Position numbers and translations under genes: made by a program. Of a stretch of 34,062 nt of DNA, positions 825-30,429 are shown piece after piece. The stretch comes from Planctomycetia bacterium (GTDB lineage Bacteria; Planctomycetota; Planctomycetia; Gemmatales; Gemmataceae): contig JANXSH010001052.1 of the NCBI GenBank assembly GCA_025356615.1, positions 1 through 34,062 on the forward strand, given 5' to 3'. The notes under the pieces were generated by a model, which saw nothing but the letters and a program-made list of their open reading frames with translations, searched no databases and was not told where the DNA came from. How positions within the stretch are numbered: position 1 is the first letter of the stretch; every line of letters begins with the position of its first letter.

Positions 825-2261
825 CTACACCGCGACACTCTCCCCGCGCTCGGCGACGGCGACATCCGTGAAACCCGCCGCCGTCAGCGCGGCGGCGAGG
901 GTCGCCGCCGGGGTCGGCTCGCCGTGGACGAGCCGGACGCGCTGCACCTTGCCGACGAGCGGCGCGAAGCTCCGCAACAAGTCGCGCTGGTCGGCGTGGC
1001 TCGACAGGCCGTTGAGGACGACGACCTCGGCCTTCAGCGGGAAGCTGCGGCCCAAGATTCGCACCTCGGGAAGGCGATCGACGATGCGCCGGCCCAGCGT
1101 GCTGGGAGCCTGGAATCCGACGATGAGGATCGTGCTTCGCGGATCCTCGATGTTGTGCTTGAGGTGATGGACGATGCGCCCCGCCTCGCACATGCCGCTC
1201 GCGGAGATGATGACCGCCGGGCCGGGCATGCGGTTCAGCGCGATGCTCTCGTGGACCTTGTCCACATAGCGGATGCGCCGTTCGCCGAAGATGTCCGGGT
1301 CGTGTTCGAGTAGCCGGCGCGTCTCGTCGTCGAAGCACTCGGGATGCGCGTGATATGCCTCGGTGGCGCGCACGGCCATCGGGCTATCCACGAAGATCGG
1401 CACCTCCGGCAGTCGGCCCGCCTTCATGAGCTGGTGCAGGAAGTAGACGACCGTTTGCGTCCGGCCCACGCTGAACGCCGGGATGATGAGCTTGCCTCCG
1501 CGCGCCGCCGTCCGCCGGACGACCTCGCCGAGTTGCTCCGCCGTCTCCTCGACCGGCTCGTGGATGCGCCCGCCGTAGGTTGACTCGCTAATGAGAAGGT
1601 CGCACTCGGGCACCGGCTCCGGGTCGCGCAGGATCGGCAGGCCCGGCCTGCCGAGGTCGCCGGTGAACGTCAGTCGGCGCGTCCCGGCGGGCGTCGTGAT
1701 GTGGACCCGCACCATCGCGGAGCCGAGCAGGTGGCCCGCGTCGGAGAACGTCGCCTCGACGCCGCGCACCACCTCGAACGGCTCGCCGTAGGGGACGGCC
1801 TTCAGCTTCAGGAGCGTCCGGTAGACGAACGGCCCGTCGTAGAGCGGCTCGATCTTGGGTTCGCCCTTGGCGCGCTTGCGATTCAGGTACTCCGCGTCCT
1901 CGCGCTGGATCTTCGCCGAGTCTCCGAGCAGCACGCCGGCGAGGGCGCGGGTCGCGGGGGTGCAAAAGATCGGCCCGGTGAACCCCTGCGCGAGCAACGT
2001 CGGCAGGTTGCCGCAGTGGTCGATGTGGGCGTGGCTCAGGACGACCGCGTCGATCTCGCGGGGGCGGAAGGGGAACTCGCGGTTGCGCCGCATGCTCTCC
2101 GCGCGCGACCCCTGGAACAGGCCGCAGTCGAGCAGGATCGACTTGCCGCAGGCATCGAGCCGGTGCATCGAGCCGGTGACGGTCTGGGCCGCACCCCAGA
2201 AGGTGACGGTCGGCTCGGCGTGTGGGGGATGTTTCTTCGCCATGCGGGGAGGCAGAGCCAT
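825..2261 (-). CDS. MBL-fold beta-CASP family ribonuclease/hydrolase
   Basis: 478-aa ORF with the metallo-beta-lactamase motif LSHAHIDHCGNLP, a beta-CASP-like middle region and a C-terminal GLSSHADQRDL motif. ATG at 2261; an alternative ATG at 2243 gives MAKKH.... Confidence 0.9.
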   Translation of the reverse strand: MALPPRMAKKHPPHAEPTVTFWGAAQTVTGSMHRLDACGKSILLDCGLFQGSRAESMRRNREFPFRPREIDAVVLSHAHIDHCGNLPTLLAQGFTGPIFCTPATRALAGVLLGDSAKIQREDAEYLNRKRAKGEPKIEPLYDGPFVYRTLLKLKAVPYGEPFEVVRGVEATFSDAGHLLGSAMVRVHITTPAGTRRLTFTGDLGRPGLPILRDPEPVPECDLLISESTYGGRIHEPVEETAEQLGEVVRRTAARGGKLIIPAFSVGRTQTVVYFLHQLMKAGRLPEVPIFVDSPMAVRATEAYHAHPECFDDETRRLLEHDPDIFGERRIRYVDKVHESIALNRMPGPAVIISASGMCEAGRIVHHLKHNIEDPRSTILIVGFQAPSTLGRRIVDRLPEVRILGRSFPLKAEVVVLNGLSSHADQRDLLRSFAPLVGKVQRVRLVHGEPTPAATLAAALTAAGFTDVAVAERGESVAV

Positions 2262-2271
2262 AGAGAGGGGT

Positions 2272-2313
2272 AAAAAAAGTGCCCGCGAGCGAATACCTCT
2301 TCGCTCGCGGTGC
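2272..2313 (-). terminator. Rho-independent terminator on the minus strand
   Basis: Minus strand reads GC-A-CCGCGAGCGAA / GAGGTA loop / TTCGCTCGCGG-GC, a roughly 13-bp GC-rich stem with one bulge. It is followed by AC and TTTTTTT (2278..2272). Confidence 0.75.
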
Positions 2314-2486
2314 GGGTTGTGCCGGTCTACACACGCCTACGTTGCCGTTTAATCCGGACCTCATTCATGAAGTCGCCCCGCTCGACCATTGAGCTACCCC
2401 CGCATGGGAAGAAAGAGCGGGGGACGGGAATTGAACTCGTATCTAAGCGACGGTTGGGTTTCGGACCTCGATTCGGCGATCGGCAC
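2272..2486 (-). ncRNA. Permuted tRNA-like ncRNA, unit 2 (candidate YrlA/Y-RNA-like tRNA mimic)
   Basis: Minus-strand order: T-arm ACGAG-TTCAATT-CCCGT (2440..2424, one A-C mismatch), then CCCCCGC (2423..2417), then a 13-nt loop. Next come GCGGGGG (2403..2397, a perfect 7-bp complement), TA, and D-arm GCTC-AATGGTC-GAGC (2394..2380). GGGCGAC (2378..2372) pairs with GTCGCTT (2451..2445) in place of an anticodon stem. A long-range closing helix pairs 2486..2470 with 2354..2351, 2347..2344 and 2327..2319. The unit ends at the intrinsic terminator. The boundaries are approximate. Confidence 0.55.
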
Positions 2487-2642
2487 CAATACTGAGCTTC
2501 GAGTGATAGCCTGACACTAAGCACCTGCCTCTACCGTTGGGCTACCCCGACGAGTGTAGATGTCGGGGGCAGGAGTCGAACCTGCACTGTCGGCGCGGAT
2601 GAGCCTGAGATTGAGTCTGAGACTGCACTCGTGGAGTGTATC
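2487..2642 (-). ncRNA. Permuted tRNA-like ncRNA, unit 1
   Basis: Minus-strand order: GCGCC (2596..2592), variable GACAGT, then T-arm GCAGG-TTCGACT-CCTGC (2585..2569). Next come CCCCGAC (2568..2562), a 10-nt loop, GTCGGGG (2551..2545, a perfect 7-bp complement) and TA. The D-arm is GCCC-AACGGTA-GAGGC (2542..2527), followed by A and GGTGC (2525..2521), which pairs with GCGCC. The unit starts directly after the stop codon of CDS 2643..3380. The distal closing stem is weak (CGAGTG/CACTCG) and the boundaries are approximate. Confidence 0.5.
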
Positions 2643-3380
2643 TTACGCCTGGCCGAAGAGGTATTTCAAGACCGGCGCGCCGATTTTCTTCGACACGACC
2701 TCGAGGTTGTTGGCCTCCTCGCGGGCCGACTTGACCGCCTCTTGCAGCTTGCGGACGCGGGCGAGGATCTCGTTGCGCTCCTTGGCGGGGATGGCACCGC
2801 TGAACTTGATCGTCGTCCAGTAGCCGACGATCACGTCCTCGGTGTAGGTCTCGACCTGGGCGGGGTGTTCCTTCGTCGCCTCGCTCTTGACGTGGTTCTT
2901 GAGCACCTTCCGGGTCTTCGTGGTCTGGTTCGACTCCGAGGCGTGGTAGTCCACGTCGGGGCTATAGTGCCAGGTCTCGCCGGGGTCGAGCGTGGAGAGC
3001 TTCTCGACGAACGTGTGCAGGTCCACGAGTTGCTTCTCGACGAAGAGCAGCGTCGTGACGGGGATGTCCTTCAGGATCGCGTTGCCGTCCACGACGACGT
3101 TCGCCTTGGCGAGGCAGTTGGCCTGGTCCTGCGTCGCCACGATGTCGAACAGTTCGACGAGGGCGGTCGTGACGCCCCCGATGGCGTCCCAGGCCTTGAG
3201 CTGGACGAGCTTCTTCTCGGGCGGCAGCTGCTCGCCCTCGTCGTCCTTGGGCTTGTAGGTTCGGCTGATGCCCTCGAGCTGGGCAGACTTCTGAAGACTG
3301 TGGTGGGCCTCGGTGATGGCCTTCTGGGCCGCCGACTTCTTGCCGGCGGAGATGGCGATGATTTGGTTGAGCTTAGGCAT
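2643..3380 (-). CDS. Hypothetical protein, 245 aa, charged and helical at both ends
   Basis: Clean ATG-to-TAA ORF with native GC3-rich codon usage (MPKLNQIIAISAGKK...VLKYLFGQA). I recognise no catalytic motif. It lies on the same strand as, and directly upstream of, the tRNA-like RNAs with no terminator between them. Confidence 0.8.
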   Translation of the reverse strand: MPKLNQIIAISAGKKSAAQKAITEAHHSLQKSAQLEGISRTYKPKDDEGEQLPPEKKLVQLKAWDAIGGVTTALVELFDIVATQDQANCLAKANVVVDGNAILKDIPVTTLLFVEKQLVDLHTFVEKLSTLDPGETWHYSPDVDYHASESNQTTKTRKVLKNHVKSEATKEHPAQVETYTEDVIVGYWTTIKFSGAIPAKERNEILARVRKLQEAVKSAREEANNLEVVSKKIGAPVLKYLFGQA

Positions 3381-3492: not shown

Positions 3493-5385
3493 TCACTCCT
3501 GTTCCTGCACCCACGACAGGGCCAAATTCACCGGCCCCGACGCCATCGGGATCGTGACTTCTTCGCGTGTGGCGTCGTCCTGGCGACGGCGATCGACGAA
3601 GTCGGGGATCGCCCGCAGGCATGCTTCCAGCAAATTCAGCTCCCGTGCCGCCGCCAGGCGGAACTCCGTTGCCGAGTCCGTGTGGATCACCTTCGGGTAG
3701 GCGTCCTCGCGCGCAATCGGCCAGCCGTGATGCTTCGCCACGTCGAGGTCCGTGACCGACATCGTCCACTCCTCGCCGTAGAGGAGGGCGGTGCTGACAT
3801 TGATGGGTTCGTCGTCCTCGATCACGTCCCGCCTCCACACCCTTTGCAGCCCGCTCAGGTCGTCGTACAACGCCAGCCCCGTCGTCATGCCGGCTTGGCC
3901 CATGACCACGGCGAACCAGGGGCCGCCTGGGAACGTGTCGCACTCGACGCGGAGCGCGCCCTCGTGGCCGACCTTCTTCCAGGGAGTTCGACGGAAGAAC
4001 AGGGCCGCCGCGTCGTAGAACGCGCCCAGCAGGGCCGGCGTGACGCCCGCGATGTCGATCTGGGCCGGTCGGGGTGGTCCGCCGACGTGTTCGTAGAGAC
4101 CCGCAAATACCTCGTCGAGGTCCGGCAAGTCCGGCTTCGCGACCAGCCGGACGCCCACCTCCTCGAAGTGACGAGTGAGCGCCTCCCAGGTTTCGCCGGG
4201 CGGAACCTGGATCTCGGTCGGACGATGGGGCGTGCCCGCCGCCGGGTGCTGCATCGCCTTCATGATCGTATCCCACAGCAGGGCCGAGGGAGGCTGATCG
4301 AGGGGCATCTCGTGGGCGAGCAGGTAGCCGTGGGCGGGGTTCGTCACGAGGACGATCCACGGGCGCACGAATTCGCCGCCGATGCGGAGCCAGTTGGGCA
4401 TCCGCCGAAAGTCGGCCTGCCAGACGCCCTCCTCGAGCGGCAGATGGGTCGTCAGCCACTTCTTGACGAAGCCGAGTGGCCCCCTCGGCTCGGGTGTTTC
4501 GGCCTTCTTCTTCGGCTTTACGTTCGCCCACAGCCAGGGAACCGCGCCGGCGGTGTCTTTCCACCCGGCCAGGCAGTGGTCGATGTAGACTAGTGCCTCG
4601 CTCTCGGCACCGCGCGTGTAGTGGTTGGGCTGTTTGCCCGAAGGCATCTTGTTGCCCAGGAGATAGTCCGGCACATGAGTGTTACTCTTCCGGGCCGTTT
4701 TCAGGAGTCGGCGCGCGTCGATCGTGTCGCCCTCGCGGCGGAAGGTGAGCAGCGCTCGGGTATAGGCCCACGACGCCGAGTCCTCGTCAAACTTGCCGAG
4801 GAGACGTGCCAGTTCCTCGTCCCGGTCCAGAAAGAGCAGGTAGCCGGCGAGCGTGTGGCGAACTCCCTGGTTGTCTTGCGGATTCAGCCGCAGCAGTTCT
4901 TGCAAGTGCTGGACGGCCTCCTCACGCCGGGCCAGCTCCCACAGGACGATGGCGAGGCCGAGCCGCGCTCGCATGTACGGCCGGGTTTCGACGACGCCCC
5001 AGAATCGGCCGACGTTTCGCGCGAACGCTTCCCGCCCGATCGCACGTTCCCCGGCGGCGACGCCCTTCTCGTAAAGATCGAGCCGCTGCTTGCGACCGCT
5101 CGTGAGTTCCGCGAGCAGGACGAAGGCGTCGGCGCAATCGGGGTCGATGGCGAGTGCGTCGTGGGCCATCCGGGCACGCCGCTTCTCGTCCAACTCCCCG
5201 AATGCCCGGTACATCATCGACTGTGCCTGGGCGGACGGCGTCGGTTTCTCGCCAAGCCCCTGGATCTGGGCGTTCAACTGCTGGATCACGCCCTCCATCA
5301 CGCGCGGATCAGGCAGACCTTCCGGGGAAGGTGTGGGCCGAAAATGCGGCCTCCTACCACCGGGCCGGGGCTTCTTTTTCGCCAT
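3493..5385 (-). CDS. Hypothetical protein with an N-terminal TPR-like helical-repeat region and an uncharacterised C-terminal half
   Basis: The track ORF is 3493..5424. The more likely start is the ATG at 5385 (MAKKKPRPGG...). The helical-repeat stretch includes AIDPDCADAFVLLAEL and LRLNPQDNQGVRHTLAGYLL. The large + ORFs overlapping it are antisense shadows. Confidence 0.75.
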   Translation of the reverse strand: MAKKKPRPGGRRPHFRPTPSPEGLPDPRVMEGVIQQLNAQIQGLGEKPTPSAQAQSMMYRAFGELDEKRRARMAHDALAIDPDCADAFVLLAELTSGRKQRLDLYEKGVAAGERAIGREAFARNVGRFWGVVETRPYMRARLGLAIVLWELARREEAVQHLQELLRLNPQDNQGVRHTLAGYLLFLDRDEELARLLGKFDEDSASWAYTRALLTFRREGDTIDARRLLKTARKSNTHVPDYLLGNKMPSGKQPNHYTRGAESEALVYIDHCLAGWKDTAGAVPWLWANVKPKKKAETPEPRGPLGFVKKWLTTHLPLEEGVWQADFRRMPNWLRIGGEFVRPWIVLVTNPAHGYLLAHEMPLDQPPSALLWDTIMKAMQHPAAGTPHRPTEIQVPPGETWEALTRHFEEVGVRLVAKPDLPDLDEVFAGLYEHVGGPPRPAQIDIAGVTPALLGAFYDAAALFFRRTPWKKVGHEGALRVECDTFPGGPWFAVVMGQAGMTTGLALYDDLSGLQRVWRRDVIEDDEPINVSTALLYGEEWTMSVTDLDVAKHHGWPIAREDAYPKVIHTDSATEFRLAAARELNLLEACLRAIPDFVDRRRQDDATREEVTIPMASGPVNLALSWVQEQE

Positions 5386-5546
5386 CGAACACTCCTTCGG
5401 CAGACAAGGGATGAATATTCTCATCCTAGAACTTGCCTCGATACAGGCGAGTGTGGAGTGTCAGTTCTCTAGGTGCGGGCTGAAACATGGATTGCTGCCA
5501 CCCCAGGTCTCCGGCCCTGACACGTTCAGCCAGCAATACAGGTCCA

Positions 5547-28445: not shown

Positions 28446-29942
28446 TCAGGCGTTGCCCCAGGCGACCCAGATCTGGCAGGCCGCCAGGTCCGCACCGGAC
28501 AGGTTCACATACGGGTTGCCGTTCGTGTCGTTCTCGCCCCACGGGTTGCGAACCATGATCGATGTCACCTGCCCGGCGGCGTTGCGAGAAACCGACACCA
28601 CCGTGTAGACGTGGCTTCCCACCAGCTTGGACCCCGCCGGGACCGACCCCGTGCCGATCGAGCACGACTGGTGCGAGTTCCAGTGGTCGAAGATCGAGTT
28701 GGCCACCGGGGCCGAGTTCCACGACGGGGCGAAGTAGCTCTCGCCCACCGAGTTGAGATTGTACGCCCGCAGCGCATCGGTCTGGTAGCCGTAGCTGAGT
28801 GAGTCGTAGGTGTTGGCCCCGGTGCGGTAGCTGGCGTAGGCCTTCTCCACGATCGCTACCCACAGGCTTCCCTCGCGACCCAGCCCGGCCATCGTCGGGT
28901 TGGTGCTGCTGGCGCTCCCGGTCGGTAGGTCCGCGTCCTCGCGGTAGAAGTTGTTGCCCAGCCGCACTCCGTAGGTGCCGTCGCCGAAGTCGGCCACCAT
29001 CGAGCGGATCGTGCCGGGGCTGTCCTGTGCTACGGATCCCATTGGGGCCATCAGCCAGCAGTCGGCCAGGGCATTTTGATCGATGTCGGCGGCCTGCGGG
29101 CCGACGCTACTGAACAGCGGGTTGGCCGAGAAGTTCTTGTAGAATTTCCCATCCGTCGGGTCGGCGATCGAGTCGCCGTCAAGGGTCCGGTCCGCGCCGT
29201 TGGCGAACGAGCCGACGGCCTGGATCTTCTCCGCGTAGACGTTGTCGTAGTTGTAGGAATTCCCGTACCAGTGCCGCACCGTGTTCTTGTCCTCCCAGAC
29301 GGTGTCTCGGCCGGCCTGACCGTCGGCGTAGTCGGTCGTTCCGCCGTCGATCGTGACCAGGGTGTCGTCGCCGTTGCCGCCGTACAAGGAATCAGTCCCC
29401 GCCCCGCCGATGATGCTGTCGTTGCCGTCCCCGCCGTAGAGGGTGTCGTTGCCGTCCCCGCCGACGAGCTTGTCGTCACCGCCGTCGCCATTCAGGGTGT
29501 CGTTCCCGGCCATACCCTTGAGGATGTCGTTGCCGTTGCCGCCCCACATCGTGTCGTTGCCGCCGTAGCCGACCAGCGTGTCGTTATTGTCGCCGCCGAT
29601 CAGAGTGTCGTTGCCGTTGTACCCCTCGAGGTAGTCGTCTCCGCCCTGACCCCAGGCGGTGACCGACAGGCTGTAGGCGTTGTTCACGAAACGGTCGTTG
29701 CCGGCCCCGCCCACGAACTGGACCTTGGTGACGCCGGCCTCGATGCGGGTGAAGCCGTTGGTGGAGTCGTAGACCTTGATGCTGGAGCCGGACTGCGAGA
29801 CGACGACGTTGCTGGCGGCGTTGTTGCTCCACATCGTCAGAACGCCGGCTGTCAGGGCGGAGGTGGTGACCGACAGGACAGTTCGGTCCTCGAGAGCCTC
29901 GAGGGTGGGGCGAAGACTACGACGAGTGGTACGAAGGGACAT
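28446..29942 (-). CDS. Secreted calpain-like (peptidase C2) cysteine protease with N-terminal RTX calcium-binding repeats
   Basis: The start is taken at the ATG at 29942 (MSLRTTRRSLRPTLEALEDRTVLSV). About 10 tandem GGxGxD nonapeptide repeats are present (GGDNNDTLVGYGGNDTMWGGNGNDILKGMAGNDTLNGDGGDD...). The calpain-like triad context is LADCWLMAPMGS (Cys), GSHVYTVVSV (His) and VRNPWGE (Asn). Confidence 0.8.
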   Translation of the reverse strand: MSLRTTRRSLRPTLEALEDRTVLSVTTSALTAGVLTMWSNNAASNVVVSQSGSSIKVYDSTNGFTRIEAGVTKVQFVGGAGNDRFVNNAYSLSVTAWGQGGDDYLEGYNGNDTLIGGDNNDTLVGYGGNDTMWGGNGNDILKGMAGNDTLNGDGGDDKLVGGDGNDTLYGGDGNDSIIGGAGTDSLYGGNGDDTLVTIDGGTTDYADGQAGRDTVWEDKNTVRHWYGNSYNYDNVYAEKIQAVGSFANGADRTLDGDSIADPTDGKFYKNFSANPLFSSVGPQAADIDQNALADCWLMAPMGSVAQDSPGTIRSMVADFGDGTYGVRLGNNFYREDADLPTGSASSTNPTMAGLGREGSLWVAIVEKAYASYRTGANTYDSLSYGYQTDALRAYNLNSVGESYFAPSWNSAPVANSIFDHWNSHQSCSIGTGSVPAGSKLVGSHVYTVVSVSRNAAGQVTSIMVRNPWGENDTNGNPYVNLSGADLAACQIWVAWGNA

Positions 29943-30429
29943 GGTGGTGGCTCCTTGGGTGGTCGATTCGGAAGGGGGGAAGGTTTGCACTTCCACTTAC
30001 TGCCGACCAGGAAATTCGTGATGGGGAGCGACAGGAAAATGTCGAAAAATGTGGACACGGCTCGCTCATCCCCTCCGCGTATTTTACGCAAGACCTTATG
30101 AGAGAACAAGTTATCAGCTTTTTTCAGGAGCGTGTCCGCTTCGCCAAAGAAAACAAAGCGGCGATTCTCGCGAATGGCACTTCCGCCGGGAAAAAGGGCA
30201 ATCGGCACGAGGATCTCAGGGGAGGAAGAGGCAAATCCTCGATCTCGCATCCCCAGCGGGTCGGCCCGCGCAGCACTCGACGCGGCGCGCACGCCAGCCC
30301 TTGTCGTGCTCCTCTCGGTTCCCCCTTCATTCCCCAGATCCTGGCGGCTCCCGAACCATTTGCTACACCCGCCCCATCGAATCGTTAGGAATTTCTGATT
30401 TGGGGACTGTTCCTCCGTGATGTGACTGC

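Follow-up and report, generated by a model that had tools for sequence, protein, structure and literature searches.

A family of structured RNAs with two permuted tRNA-like heads next to DUF7873 genes of bacteria and phages

To our knowledge, only two ribonucleoproteins (RNPs) built on mimicry of transfer RNA (tRNA) are well established in bacteria, transfer-messenger RNA (tmRNA) with SmpB and Y RNA with Ro60. Genes for tmRNA can be circularly permuted. Among the Y RNAs, almost every known YrlA gene has rsr within 4 kb and on its own strand, and mycobacteriophages with tRNA arrays carry both Ro60 and YrlA (PMC4201824). Here, we describe a locus in a 34,062-nucleotide (nt) stretch of DNA, hereafter the window, from a Planctomycetia bacterium (contig JANXSH010001052.1 of assembly GCA_025356615.1). 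Its minus strand encodes a noncoding RNA (ncRNA) of ~360 nt (2272..2633) with two permuted tRNA-like heads, directly downstream of a gene (2643..3380, minus strand) for a 245-residue protein of the Pfam family DUF7873 (PF25283). Coordinates are positions in the window, and all RNA elements lie on its minus strand.

A preliminary description of this region, made from the letters alone, had reported two tandem units with their tRNA-like arms in a permuted order, and all motifs listed for both units were found at exactly the minus-strand positions it gave. The order of T arm, acceptor stem and D arm is real, as the window has two matches to the pattern GTTCRAYTCC N15-45 GTAGCYCAA and 100 dinucleotide-preserving shuffles have none. 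As had been predicted, ARAGORN calls no intact tRNA in the window, nor a tmRNA. Both units are permuted tRNA-like modules consisting of a T arm, a closed 7-bp acceptor stem, U8-A9 and a D arm, without an anticodon loop, and this topology is that of YrlA (PMC4201824). The two units are both real, yet they are domains of one RNA, the first being closed by a helix that had been overlooked (P1; CGAGUG 2631-2626 with CACUCG 2505-2500).

An RNA family linked to DUF7873

The RNA loci were gathered from the protein side, and homologues were sought with a profile started from the window's 371 nt. The cellular sample comprised 80 loci encoding DUF7873 relatives on bacterial contigs, at one genome per species, with proteins 57-77% identical to the window protein. 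The sampled groups were Planctomycetota, Chloroflexota, Actinomycetota, Myxococcota, Acidobacteriota, Armatimonadota, Deinococcales and a metagenome-assembled genome of Clostridia. In 69 of the 80 cellular loci, covering eight or more phyla, a full-length RNA homologue lies directly 3' of the DUF7873 gene and in the same orientation. Relatives of DUF7873 (39-61% identity) are also encoded on 114 IMG/VR contigs, and among the best 80 of these the RNA is found downstream of the gene in 77. The gaps between gene and RNA amount to tens of nucleotides. A hidden Markov model built from relatives only has a single match in the window, at 2274-2630 on the minus strand (E-value 5.8e-80). Loci in which DUF7873 is intact and no RNA is detectable within 6 kb occur in Herpetosiphon/Chloroflexia (L006, L012, L014, L017-L019, L021 and L033).

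Apart from DUF7873, clustering of the open reading frames (ORFs) within 6 kb on either side gave no conserved neighbour: the next commonest family occurs in 19 of 81 cellular and 16 of 80 viral loci, and the cellular runner-up reflects lineage synteny within Dactylosporangium. The preliminary description had regarded an unknown 245-residue protein and a beta-CASP RNase as mere flanks of the RNA. The protein is instead the conserved partner; the RNase is indeed unconserved, with a counterpart in none of 80 related loci. Searches starting from the RNA yielded two true RNAs, in L139 and L297, both adjoining DUF7873. One came from a D-arm pattern search of metagenomes, which otherwise returned mostly genes for type I tRNA-Leu, and the other from a search of viral contigs with the conserved UUAAACG block, which also gave 28 chance matches. 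At the gathering threshold, Rfam reports nothing for the RNA in the window or in 11 + 20 related loci, and no earlier description of DUF7873, of an ncRNA with two tRNA-like parts or of a phage tRNA mimic of this kind was found in the literature searched, which also covered the phages named below.

The window holds one structured ncRNA of ~360 nt that is conserved over many bacterial phyla and phages. This conservation and the near-constant place after DUF7873 therefore make a new machine of RNA and protein, based on mimicry of tRNA, probable. In a consensus scan, a promoter-like element (2640..2669) overlaps the end of the DUF7873 coding sequence, with TTGAAA at -35 (2669-2664), a spacer of 18 and TAAGAT at -10 (2645-2640). 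Relatives show a TANNNT hexamer upstream of the GAG of P1, with its start 13-14 nt away in 35/68 and 20 nt away in 15/68 (background 0.022 per position). A positioned -10-like hexamer, counted in 55/68 relatives, suggests that the RNA has its own promoter. At the other end, a consensus terminator scan finds a hairpin of 11 pairs (2310-2283) and a T-run (2278-2272). The RNA gene thus appears to be its own transcription unit, bounded by a predicted promoter and terminator.

The window protein matches PF25283 with 341.7 bits (cut-off 27; E 3.6e-102) over profile positions 1-242 of 244. Across 16 sequences from eight phyla the protein shows zero indels and a mean column identity of 81%, identity across phyla is ~60%, and many His, Asp, Glu and Lys residues are invariant. 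The family is large, with at least 7,991 clusters at 90% identity and 2,617 clusters at 50%, and a search for domain fusions showed that essentially all representatives are single-domain proteins of ~245 residues. The AlphaFold model is confident (pLDDT, a per-residue confidence score, 89.5; predicted template modelling score 0.75) and consists of long helices and a long beta-hairpin.

In phages, the pair of gene and RNA often sits among tRNA genes. About half of the RNA-bearing viral loci hold such genes, up to 36 in 12.7 kb, and the viral neighbours include genes for terminase, portal, MuF, endolysin and deoxycytidylate (dCMP) deaminase. DUF7873 is present in 74 cultured phage genomes and annotated throughout as 'hypothetical protein'; by the first word of their names, these are phages of Vibrio (29), Gordonia (12), Rhizobium (11), Klebsiella (7), Serratia (6), Arthrobacter (3), Pseudanabaena (2), Ralstonia (2), Rhodococcus (1) and Microcoleus (1). 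The DUF7873 gene lies in the middle of a tRNA array both in Gordonia phage Phendrix and in Arthrobacter phage Racecar, where an unannotated gap of 400-500 nt after the gene holds the RNA (E 2e-38 in Phendrix and 5.5e-52 in Racecar). Downstream of a DUF7873 gene whose product is 32% identical, in a Vibrio phage, the RNA was read by eye. Phage tRNAs have been proposed to counter host defences that target tRNAs (PMC10264068).

Fold and covariation

Covariation was assessed on an alignment (A4) of 34 non-redundant members, in which both acceptor loops were cut down to the four nt at either end. The structure of 13 helices is the RNAalifold prediction on A4 minus one doubtful helix that was tested separately, and hence is not independent of the alignment; its six tRNA-like helices are those that the preliminary description had proposed from the window sequence alone. 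Over 80 pairs, 95.3% of the cells are paired, compared with 75.1% in column shuffles and 40-46% with slid partners. Both sides have changed in 67 pairs (47 in shuffles), double changes occur in 574 cells (171 in shuffles), and none of 500 shuffles equals any of the observed covariation measures. Compensatory changes among relatives, for which the preliminary description had proposed to look, are thus present in acceptor stems and closing helices. The six tRNA-like helices are 98-100% paired in an untrimmed alignment, ten of whose sequences are viral or phage copies.

The RNA runs from domain 1 through a short linker to domain 2, a 3' hairpin and a U tract. Domain 1 is enclosed by P1, whose 5' strand CGAGUG (2626..2631; family consensus GGAGYR) pairs with the 3' strand CACUCG (2500..2505), with 94% of cells paired and compensatory changes. 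Inside P1 lie a large internal loop, P2 and head 1. P2 resembles an anticodon stem and joins GCGCC (2592..2596, the 3'-side strand) to GGUGC (2521..2525, the 5'-side strand); equivalent nested helices were seen by eye in relatives, and P2 stands outside the counted structure. Head 1 itself begins with a variable loop of 5 nt, ACAGU (2586..2590), followed by the T arm GCAGG-UUCGACU-CCUGC (2569..2585), which is 99-100% paired and shows compensatory changes. Its acceptor hairpin (2545..2568) consists of CCCCGAC (2568-2562), A73 (2561), the loop and GUCGGGG (2551-2545), with 99% of cells paired and all 7 of 7 pairs covarying. U8-A9 and the D arm GCCC-AACGGUA-GAGGC (2527..2544; D arm 2542-2527) complete the head.

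Domain 2 is a long irregular stem, P3-P7, with head 2 on top. Its 5' strands (2445..2486) are P3 GUGCC, P4 CGCC(G)A, P5, P6 UCCGAAACC, which includes GGUCCGA, and P7 GUCGCUU (GTCGCTT in the gene, 2451-2445), the partner of GGGCGAC (2378-2372). The 3' strands (2319..2378) run from that P7 strand through a conserved UGA bulge region, P6, the conserved block UUAAACG (2352-2346) and P4 GGCG (2337-2334) to P3 GGCAC (2323-2319). Helices 5-9, which make up this stem, are 78-99% paired, and each P6 and P7 pair shows compensatory changes. Head 2 has the T arm ACGAG-UUCAAUU-CCCGU (2424..2440; 99% paired, 5/5 pairs with compensatory changes) and an acceptor hairpin (2397..2423) of CCCCCGC (2423-2417), discriminator U (2416), a 13-nt loop and GCGGGGG (2403-2397), which is 99.6% paired with 7/7 pairs covarying. 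Its U8-A9 and D arm GCUC-AAUGGUC-GAGC (2380..2396; D arm 2394-2380) include a D stem that covaries, for example from C-G to U-A. The last element, P8 (2272..2310), reads CCGCGAGCGAAG-AGGUAUU-CGCUCGCGG followed by GCAC and U7. In the window it is the intrinsic terminator; across the family it is a conserved, covarying hairpin (12/12 pairs with compensatory changes, 97% paired) with a conserved NGGNUAY loop. A scan for further covarying helices or pseudoknots gave nothing convincing.

The closing helix that the preliminary description had drawn for unit 2 holds in its outer part, GUGCC with GGCAC. The segment that it paired with CGGC (at family level CGCC, 2478-2475) pairs instead with GGCG (2337-2334), and AAUC/GAUU is unsupported by relatives. 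It had also offered an alternative pairing within domain 2, GAGGUCCGA with CGACUUC, involving GAGGTCCGA (2469-2461) and CGACTTC in the 3' strands (2375-2369), to which relatives lend no support. The element GAGGUCCG is present twice in the window RNA (2355-2362 and 2462-2469), and its 3' copy can form a local hairpin, GACUUCA-UGAA-UGAGGUC. This duplication is restricted to the closest relatives (the window and L001) and is no feature of the family.

The elbow between the D and T loops provides a further signature. The T-loop UUC always occurs with the D-loop GG (71 distinct sequences), the T-loop UGC always with AG (13 sequences, from one planctomycete clade), and mixed combinations number 0. 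A tertiary change from G18:U55 to A18:G55 fits a tRNA-type elbow, and the split may go back to one evolutionary event. The tRNA model RF00005 gives a match of 19.7 bits (cut-off 29), which spans from the 5' acceptor strand of unit 1 to the T arm of unit 2.

Some members differ in the number of heads. Copies that lack head 1 lie at 6822-7099 in L076, where a plain hairpin takes its place, at 6823-7106 in L079, and in the viral loci L212-L214, L237, L246, L249, L252, L262 and L264. In Actinocatenispora, a third permuted tRNA-like module with a very short acceptor loop follows domain 2 (L059 7189-7256; L069 7454-7537).

Heads, hexamer repeats and surroundings

The D arm of head 1, GUAGCCCAA..AGAGGC with its bulged A, is invariant in every member. 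This pattern was scanned over metagenome contigs and the matches were checked with ARAGORN, which showed most of them to be ordinary short tRNA genes (71-78 nt). Of 116 tRNAs with the pattern, 109 have a Leu anticodon (UAA 47, UAG 30, CAA 21, GAG 6, CAG 4, AAG 1). Pattern-bearing Leu tRNAs have A73 in 97/99 cases and a variable loop ending in CAGU in 65/99, compared with 8/279 other tRNAs. Head 1 shares all three features of type I tRNA-Leu, the D arm, the 5-nt variable loop ending in CAGU and A73, and has C74 too. It lacks the Leu anticodon stem-loop and free 5' and 3' ends, as its acceptor end is closed by the 10-nt loop in the gene. Judged from its sequence, head 1 is clearly a circularly permuted type I (short-variable-loop) tRNA-Leu minus the anticodon arm. 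Type I tRNA-Leu is leucylated by the leucyl-tRNA synthetase (LeuRS) of S. coelicolor, with U8:A14, the length of the variable loop and C74 being important (PMC6614811). When head 2 was compared with 413 tRNAs, no clear isotype emerged; it is taken to be a generic class I tRNA. A likeness of head 2 to tRNA-Gly/Trp is not supported by a test.

In all 17 of 17 Dactylosporangium loci, a type I (74-75 nt) tRNA-Leu(UAG) precedes DUF7873 in the same orientation at a distance of 50-400 nt (L026 5607-5681, L028 5877-5950, L032, L039-L042, L044, L056, L064-L067, L071, L073, L074 and L077); a genuine counterpart of the model for head 1 therefore adjoins the module there. The pattern GTAGCCCAAN{2,6}AGAGGC matches ~100 distinct tRNA genes in the metagenome contigs L081-L200, all short and with a Leu anticodon. 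Many of them stand in dense arrays (more than 25 tRNAs in L163), and type I tRNA-Leu seems far more broadly distributed than the Streptomyces literature implies. Beside one metagenome tRNA array, a DUF3800-IX RNA scores above threshold (L181 2610-2670, 48.9 bits).

The acceptor loops, which resemble the end of a tRNA fused to a tRNA leader, were counted over all distinct copies and range from 4 to 139 nt, the shortest reading N73-CCA-(N)-AU before G1. The discriminator of head 1 is A in 62/62 cellular and 25/32 viral copies, and that of head 2 is U in 35/58 cellular and 33/42 viral copies (68/100 together). C74 is found in 40/62 cellular and 29/32 viral copies of head 1, and in 51/58 and 40/42 copies of head 2 (91/100). 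The commonest triplet at 74-76 is CCA, which is present in 9/62 cellular and 11/32 viral copies of head 1 and in 12/58 and 22/42 copies of head 2. The base before G1 is mostly a pyrimidine, being U in 31/42 viral copies of head 2, and the minimal acceptor loops of Phendrix read ACCA-CAU-G and UCCA-CGU-G. Several phages keep CCA in head 2 though the tRNAs of their arrays have no encoded CCA, which argues that this CCA is under selection in its own right. The YrlA of M. smegmatis is the sole YrlA with a 7-bp acceptor stem; RNase P cuts it in vitro and in vivo, and its 5' half gains CCA (PMC4201824). By analogy with this RNA, both heads are probably RNase P substrates, and the mature RNA would consist of three base-paired pieces.

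Directly after the 5' strand of P1 stand four in-phase hexamers, CUCAGA, CUCAAU, CUCAGG and CUCAUC (2598..2621; motif Y-U-N-A-R-N). Their period is visible in 46 anchored sequences: counted from GGAG, U recurs at 12/18/24/30 and A at 14/20/26/32, and within a hexamer positions three and six are nearly free. The repeats persist in Vibrio phage D505, whose DUF7873 is 32% identical, as ACUAAA, ACUCAA and ACUAAA. They can be read as Leu codons (YUN) or as positions 32-36 of a Leu anticodon loop, and CUNAG is complementary to such loops. Pairing of hexamer 1 gives a weak signal (86% vs 81.5% in shuffles) and the other hexamers give none, and the N positions are uncorrelated with everything tested. 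A coding or tag ORF was considered and rejected, as there is no conserved frame or stop and UUY codons stand beside UUR. The simplest guess is that the hexamers are a protein-binding repeat.

The surroundings in the window are those of an ordinary planctomycete chromosome, with pheT, a sigma-70 gene, a DEAD-box helicase and PSD1/PSCyt2 genes. The beta-CASP/MBL RNase gene (825-2261, minus strand) has as its top NCBIfam match the model of the type VII CRISPR protein Cas14 (372 bits, cut-off 800), followed by aCPSF1. A 643-residue protein with ST7-like/TPR, DUF6930 and DUF7309 regions is encoded at 3493-5424 (minus strand). Further away, an ORF at 28446-29996 (minus strand) joins RTX calcium-binding repeats to a calpain-type (Peptidase_C2) domain.

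Possible roles and relation to known systems

In the reading that we favour, with slightly better than even confidence, DUF7873 forms an RNP with a double tRNA mimic that is probably processed by RNase P and acts on tRNA-handling machinery. What the analysis shows is an RNA family with a defined fold, linked to DUF7873 and, in head 1, descended from tRNA-Leu, together with its context in phages; RNA-protein binding, processing and a decoy or adaptor role are what we infer. The RNA would be transcribed from its own promoter and fold as two long stems, each topped by the permuted top half of a tRNA without anticodon loop, that is, T arm, 7-bp acceptor stem, D arm and the elbow of D-loop and T-loop. 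In each acceptor 'loop', the RNase P cut would fall 5' of G1, and the 3' tail, which is short, would be trimmed or repaired to N73-CCA, as in M. smegmatis YrlA. Enzymes that act on tRNA, namely RNase P, CCA-adding or trimming enzymes and TruB/Dus, would recognise the heads, and the loops would be excised. Together, RNA and DUF7873 may form an RNP that displays two acceptor/elbow surfaces and four single-stranded Y-U-N-A-R-N repeats to machinery that recognises tRNA. Such an RNP could serve as a decoy or adaptor toward LeuRS, EF-Tu, the ribosome or tRNA-targeting nucleases, alongside phage tRNA arrays, and could control or protect the tRNA pool in phage-host conflict or stress, the tRNA-Leu pool being the prime suspect. 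A decoy or adaptor role seems the most likely one because the module is common inside phage tRNA arrays. Among these steps, our confidence is highest for RNP formation, lower for recognition by tRNA enzymes with excision of the loops, and lowest for engagement as a decoy or adaptor.

Several observations weigh against this reading. DUF7873 is present and no RNA was found within 6 kb in 11 of the 80 cellular loci, mainly Herpetosiphon/Chloroflexia, and the same holds for 3 of 80 viral loci, L201, L202 and L240, in which DUF7873 is intact. RNA variants without head 1 occur in Streptomyces (L076 and L079) and in about 14 viral loci; mimicry of tRNA-Leu is therefore no universal core, and domain 2 appears to fill that place. 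CCA is present in only 15-52% of modules and shows no correlation with the encoding of CCA in nearby tRNA genes (Fisher p = 1 and 0.24). No convincing pairing partner for the hexamers was found, whether among other CUNAG units or one another. Searches for relatives of DUF7873 among PDB sequences, NCBIfam, PADLOC, PHROGs and, with Foldseek, PDB and BFVD (E <= 1e-3) gave nothing significant. Finally, the cellular copies are very highly conserved, which is unusual for arms-race genes; they may be a domesticated, strongly constrained branch.

A bolder reading, possible but rather unlikely in our view, sees an unrecognised and very widespread class of RNP, found in eight or more bacterial phyla and in phages of Actinomycetota, Cyanobacteria and Proteobacteria. 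Here, the transcript would be cut by RNase P to three base-paired pieces, with two CCA-ended arms, one of them tRNA-Leu-like, and with hexamers resembling Leu anticodons or codons, and would act directly on tRNA-Leu or the translation machinery. The options include being charged, capturing tRNA-Leu and decoying tRNA-targeting nucleases, with phages using the RNP beside their tRNA arrays.

That the RNA is a true aminoacyl acceptor is unlikely. Once matured by RNase P and CCA addition, head 1 would then be leucylated by LeuRS and head 2 charged by another synthetase, and the charged RNP would serve in translation, for rescue or tagging as by tmRNA-SmpB, or as an aminoacyl donor for a transfer catalysed by DUF7873. 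Head 1 does keep U8:A14, A15:U48, G18G19, the 5-nt variable loop, A73 and C74, the set relevant to LeuRS (PMC6614811); head 2 keeps CCA in phages whose tRNA genes mostly lack an encoded one; the Y-U-N repeats read as Leu codons; tmRNA genes are permuted at times as well; and the invariant His, Asp, Glu and Lys residues of DUF7873 are many. Yet no conserved frame or stop follows the repeats, and neither ARAGORN nor Rfam finds a tmRNA in the window. The Ala identity pair G3:U70 is absent, as pair 3:70 is C:G in 33/34 copies of module 1 and G:C or C:G in module 2. Moreover, most cellular copies have no CCA, head 1 is dispensable in some lineages, and DUF7873 shows no similarity to SmpB, Fem/GNAT or cyclodipeptide-synthase folds. 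Somewhat less probable still is a guide RNP, in which a DUF7873 multimer would sit on the hexamers with one subunit per 6 nt, as Cas7 does, with CUNAG guiding the capture of tRNA-Leu or other RNA and the heads serving as handles. Cas7 subunits bind RNA with a 6-nt period, and the strict 6-nt period with two free positions per repeat, kept out to Vibrio phages, would suit such an arrangement, as would the complementarity of CUNAG to positions 32-36 of Leu anticodon loops. The top Foldseek matches in the PDB are Cas7 subunits from three Cascade types, but they are weak (best E 5.9e-3, template modelling score ~0.14, probability 0.07-0.21), hhalign against E. coli CasC gives a probability of 0.4%, and the N positions of the repeats correlate with nothing tested; the Cas7 lead was dropped. 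A comparably low probability attaches to a cis-acting 3' untranslated or processing cassette of the DUF7873 mRNA. The RNA lies immediately 3' of the gene on the same strand, and tRNA-like elements can direct RNase P cleavage of mRNAs, which would release or stabilise the message. Against such punctuation stand the conserved and well-placed -10-like hexamer just upstream of P1 and the extent of the RNA, which with ~360 nt, 13 covarying helices, invariant loops and hexamers exceeds the needs of a processing signal.

The preliminary description had raised a Y-RNA-type candidate, and a pair of genuine Y RNAs of YrlA/YrlB type that bind a Ro60/Rsr encoded elsewhere, with DUF7873 as a mere syntenic neighbour, now appears very unlikely. 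The RNA has the domain order of YrlA and aligns locally to positions 24-84 of its Rfam model (RF02553), and YrlA and tRNA provide the sole sub-threshold Rfam matches. The scores, however, are 25.3 and 21.5 bits in the window and 24-34 bits (maximum 33.6) in relatives, where the gathering cut-off is 69, and two adjacent ordinary tRNAs (L139 2576-2671) score 29.9 bits with the same model; these matches were dropped as evidence of membership because adjacent tRNAs score alike. The window copy holds GGUCCGA, which had been likened to the Ro-binding helix GGUC(C)GA and which marks that helix in Y RNAs of metazoans and D. radiodurans. This motif occurs in only 5/145 members and lies inside P6, a covarying helix of variable sequence. 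The bacterial Ro60-binding motif GNCGAAN0-1G, expected near the 5' end, is found anywhere in 43/145 members, mostly as GCCGAACG at the start of domain 2, and in the first 80 nt in 3/145. The precedent of tRNA-array mycobacteriophages with Ro60 and YrlA speaks for Y RNA as well, but the tight linkage here is to DUF7873. As noted before, genes for Ro60/TROVE and RtcB are absent from the 18 window ORFs scanned, and neither is conserved near related loci: in 160 of these, the 6 kb on either side contain no conserved TROVE gene, and DUF7873 is the only conserved neighbour in 81 cellular and 80 viral loci. The probability that the modules are scrambled debris or pseudogenes of two ordinary tRNA genes, which the preliminary description had named as the refuting case, is practically nil. 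Head 1 derives from type I tRNA-Leu, as such debris might, but the same permuted layout with compensatory changes in every helix recurs in more than 140 loci over phyla and phages.

What emerges is an RNA with 13 covarying helices outside every Rfam 15 family, and a first functional lead for DUF7873, namely an RNA partner. In its conservation from phylum to phylum the protein equals a ribosomal protein, although its diversity is greatest in phages. The RNA accounts for the recurrent unannotated gap of ~400 nt in the tRNA arrays of phages such as Phendrix and Racecar, and the little-studied type I tRNA-Leu is now tied to a mimic. The locus also lends itself to a direct test of whether RNase P matures an RNA made of several pieces. 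Should the module guard or manipulate the tRNA pool, it would have a bearing on the reason for tRNA arrays in phages.

Set beside the known systems, the RNA is closest to YrlA in architecture. Both have the permuted order of variable region, T arm, closed acceptor stem-loop and D arm (RF02553; PMC4201824), both replace the anticodon stem by a long stem leading to the rest of the RNA and keep the nucleotides of the tRNA tertiary pairs, and both occur in bacteria and in tRNA-array phages with the gene for a partner protein adjacent on the same strand. They differ in that partner, which is DUF7873 and not a TROVE/vWA protein, and in the number of heads, with two in one RNA of ~360 nt and one in ~110-150 nt for YrlA. 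The DUF7873-linked RNA has no conserved Ro-binding motif, and its hexamers, UUAAACG block and P8 loop are extra. The two-piece tmRNAs of permuted genes, with SmpB, likewise present a tRNA mimic without anticodon arm on a long irregular helix, with T arm, 3' acceptor strand, (CCA), spacer and 5' acceptor strand in this order, and likewise have a dedicated small partner protein and a single-stranded codon-like tract. In contrast to tmRNA, the present RNA has no G3:U70 and no tag frame with a stop, it carries two heads, and head 1 resembles tRNA-Leu and not tRNA-Ala; sequence searches show no relation of DUF7873 to SmpB. With type I tRNA-Leu (PMC6614811), head 1 shares the D arm, the 5-nt variable loop ending in CAGU, the T arm, A73 and C74, but it is permuted, its acceptor end is looped, and without an anticodon stem-loop it cannot decode. 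The setting in phages is that of their tRNA arrays (PMC10264068), among whose tRNAs the module is embedded, though the DUF7873-linked RNA is no decoding tRNA, and a part in evading tRNA-targeting nucleases would be by extension from these arrays. Next to tmRNA-SmpB and Y RNA-Ro60, the locus thus points to a third bacterial tRNA-mimic RNP.

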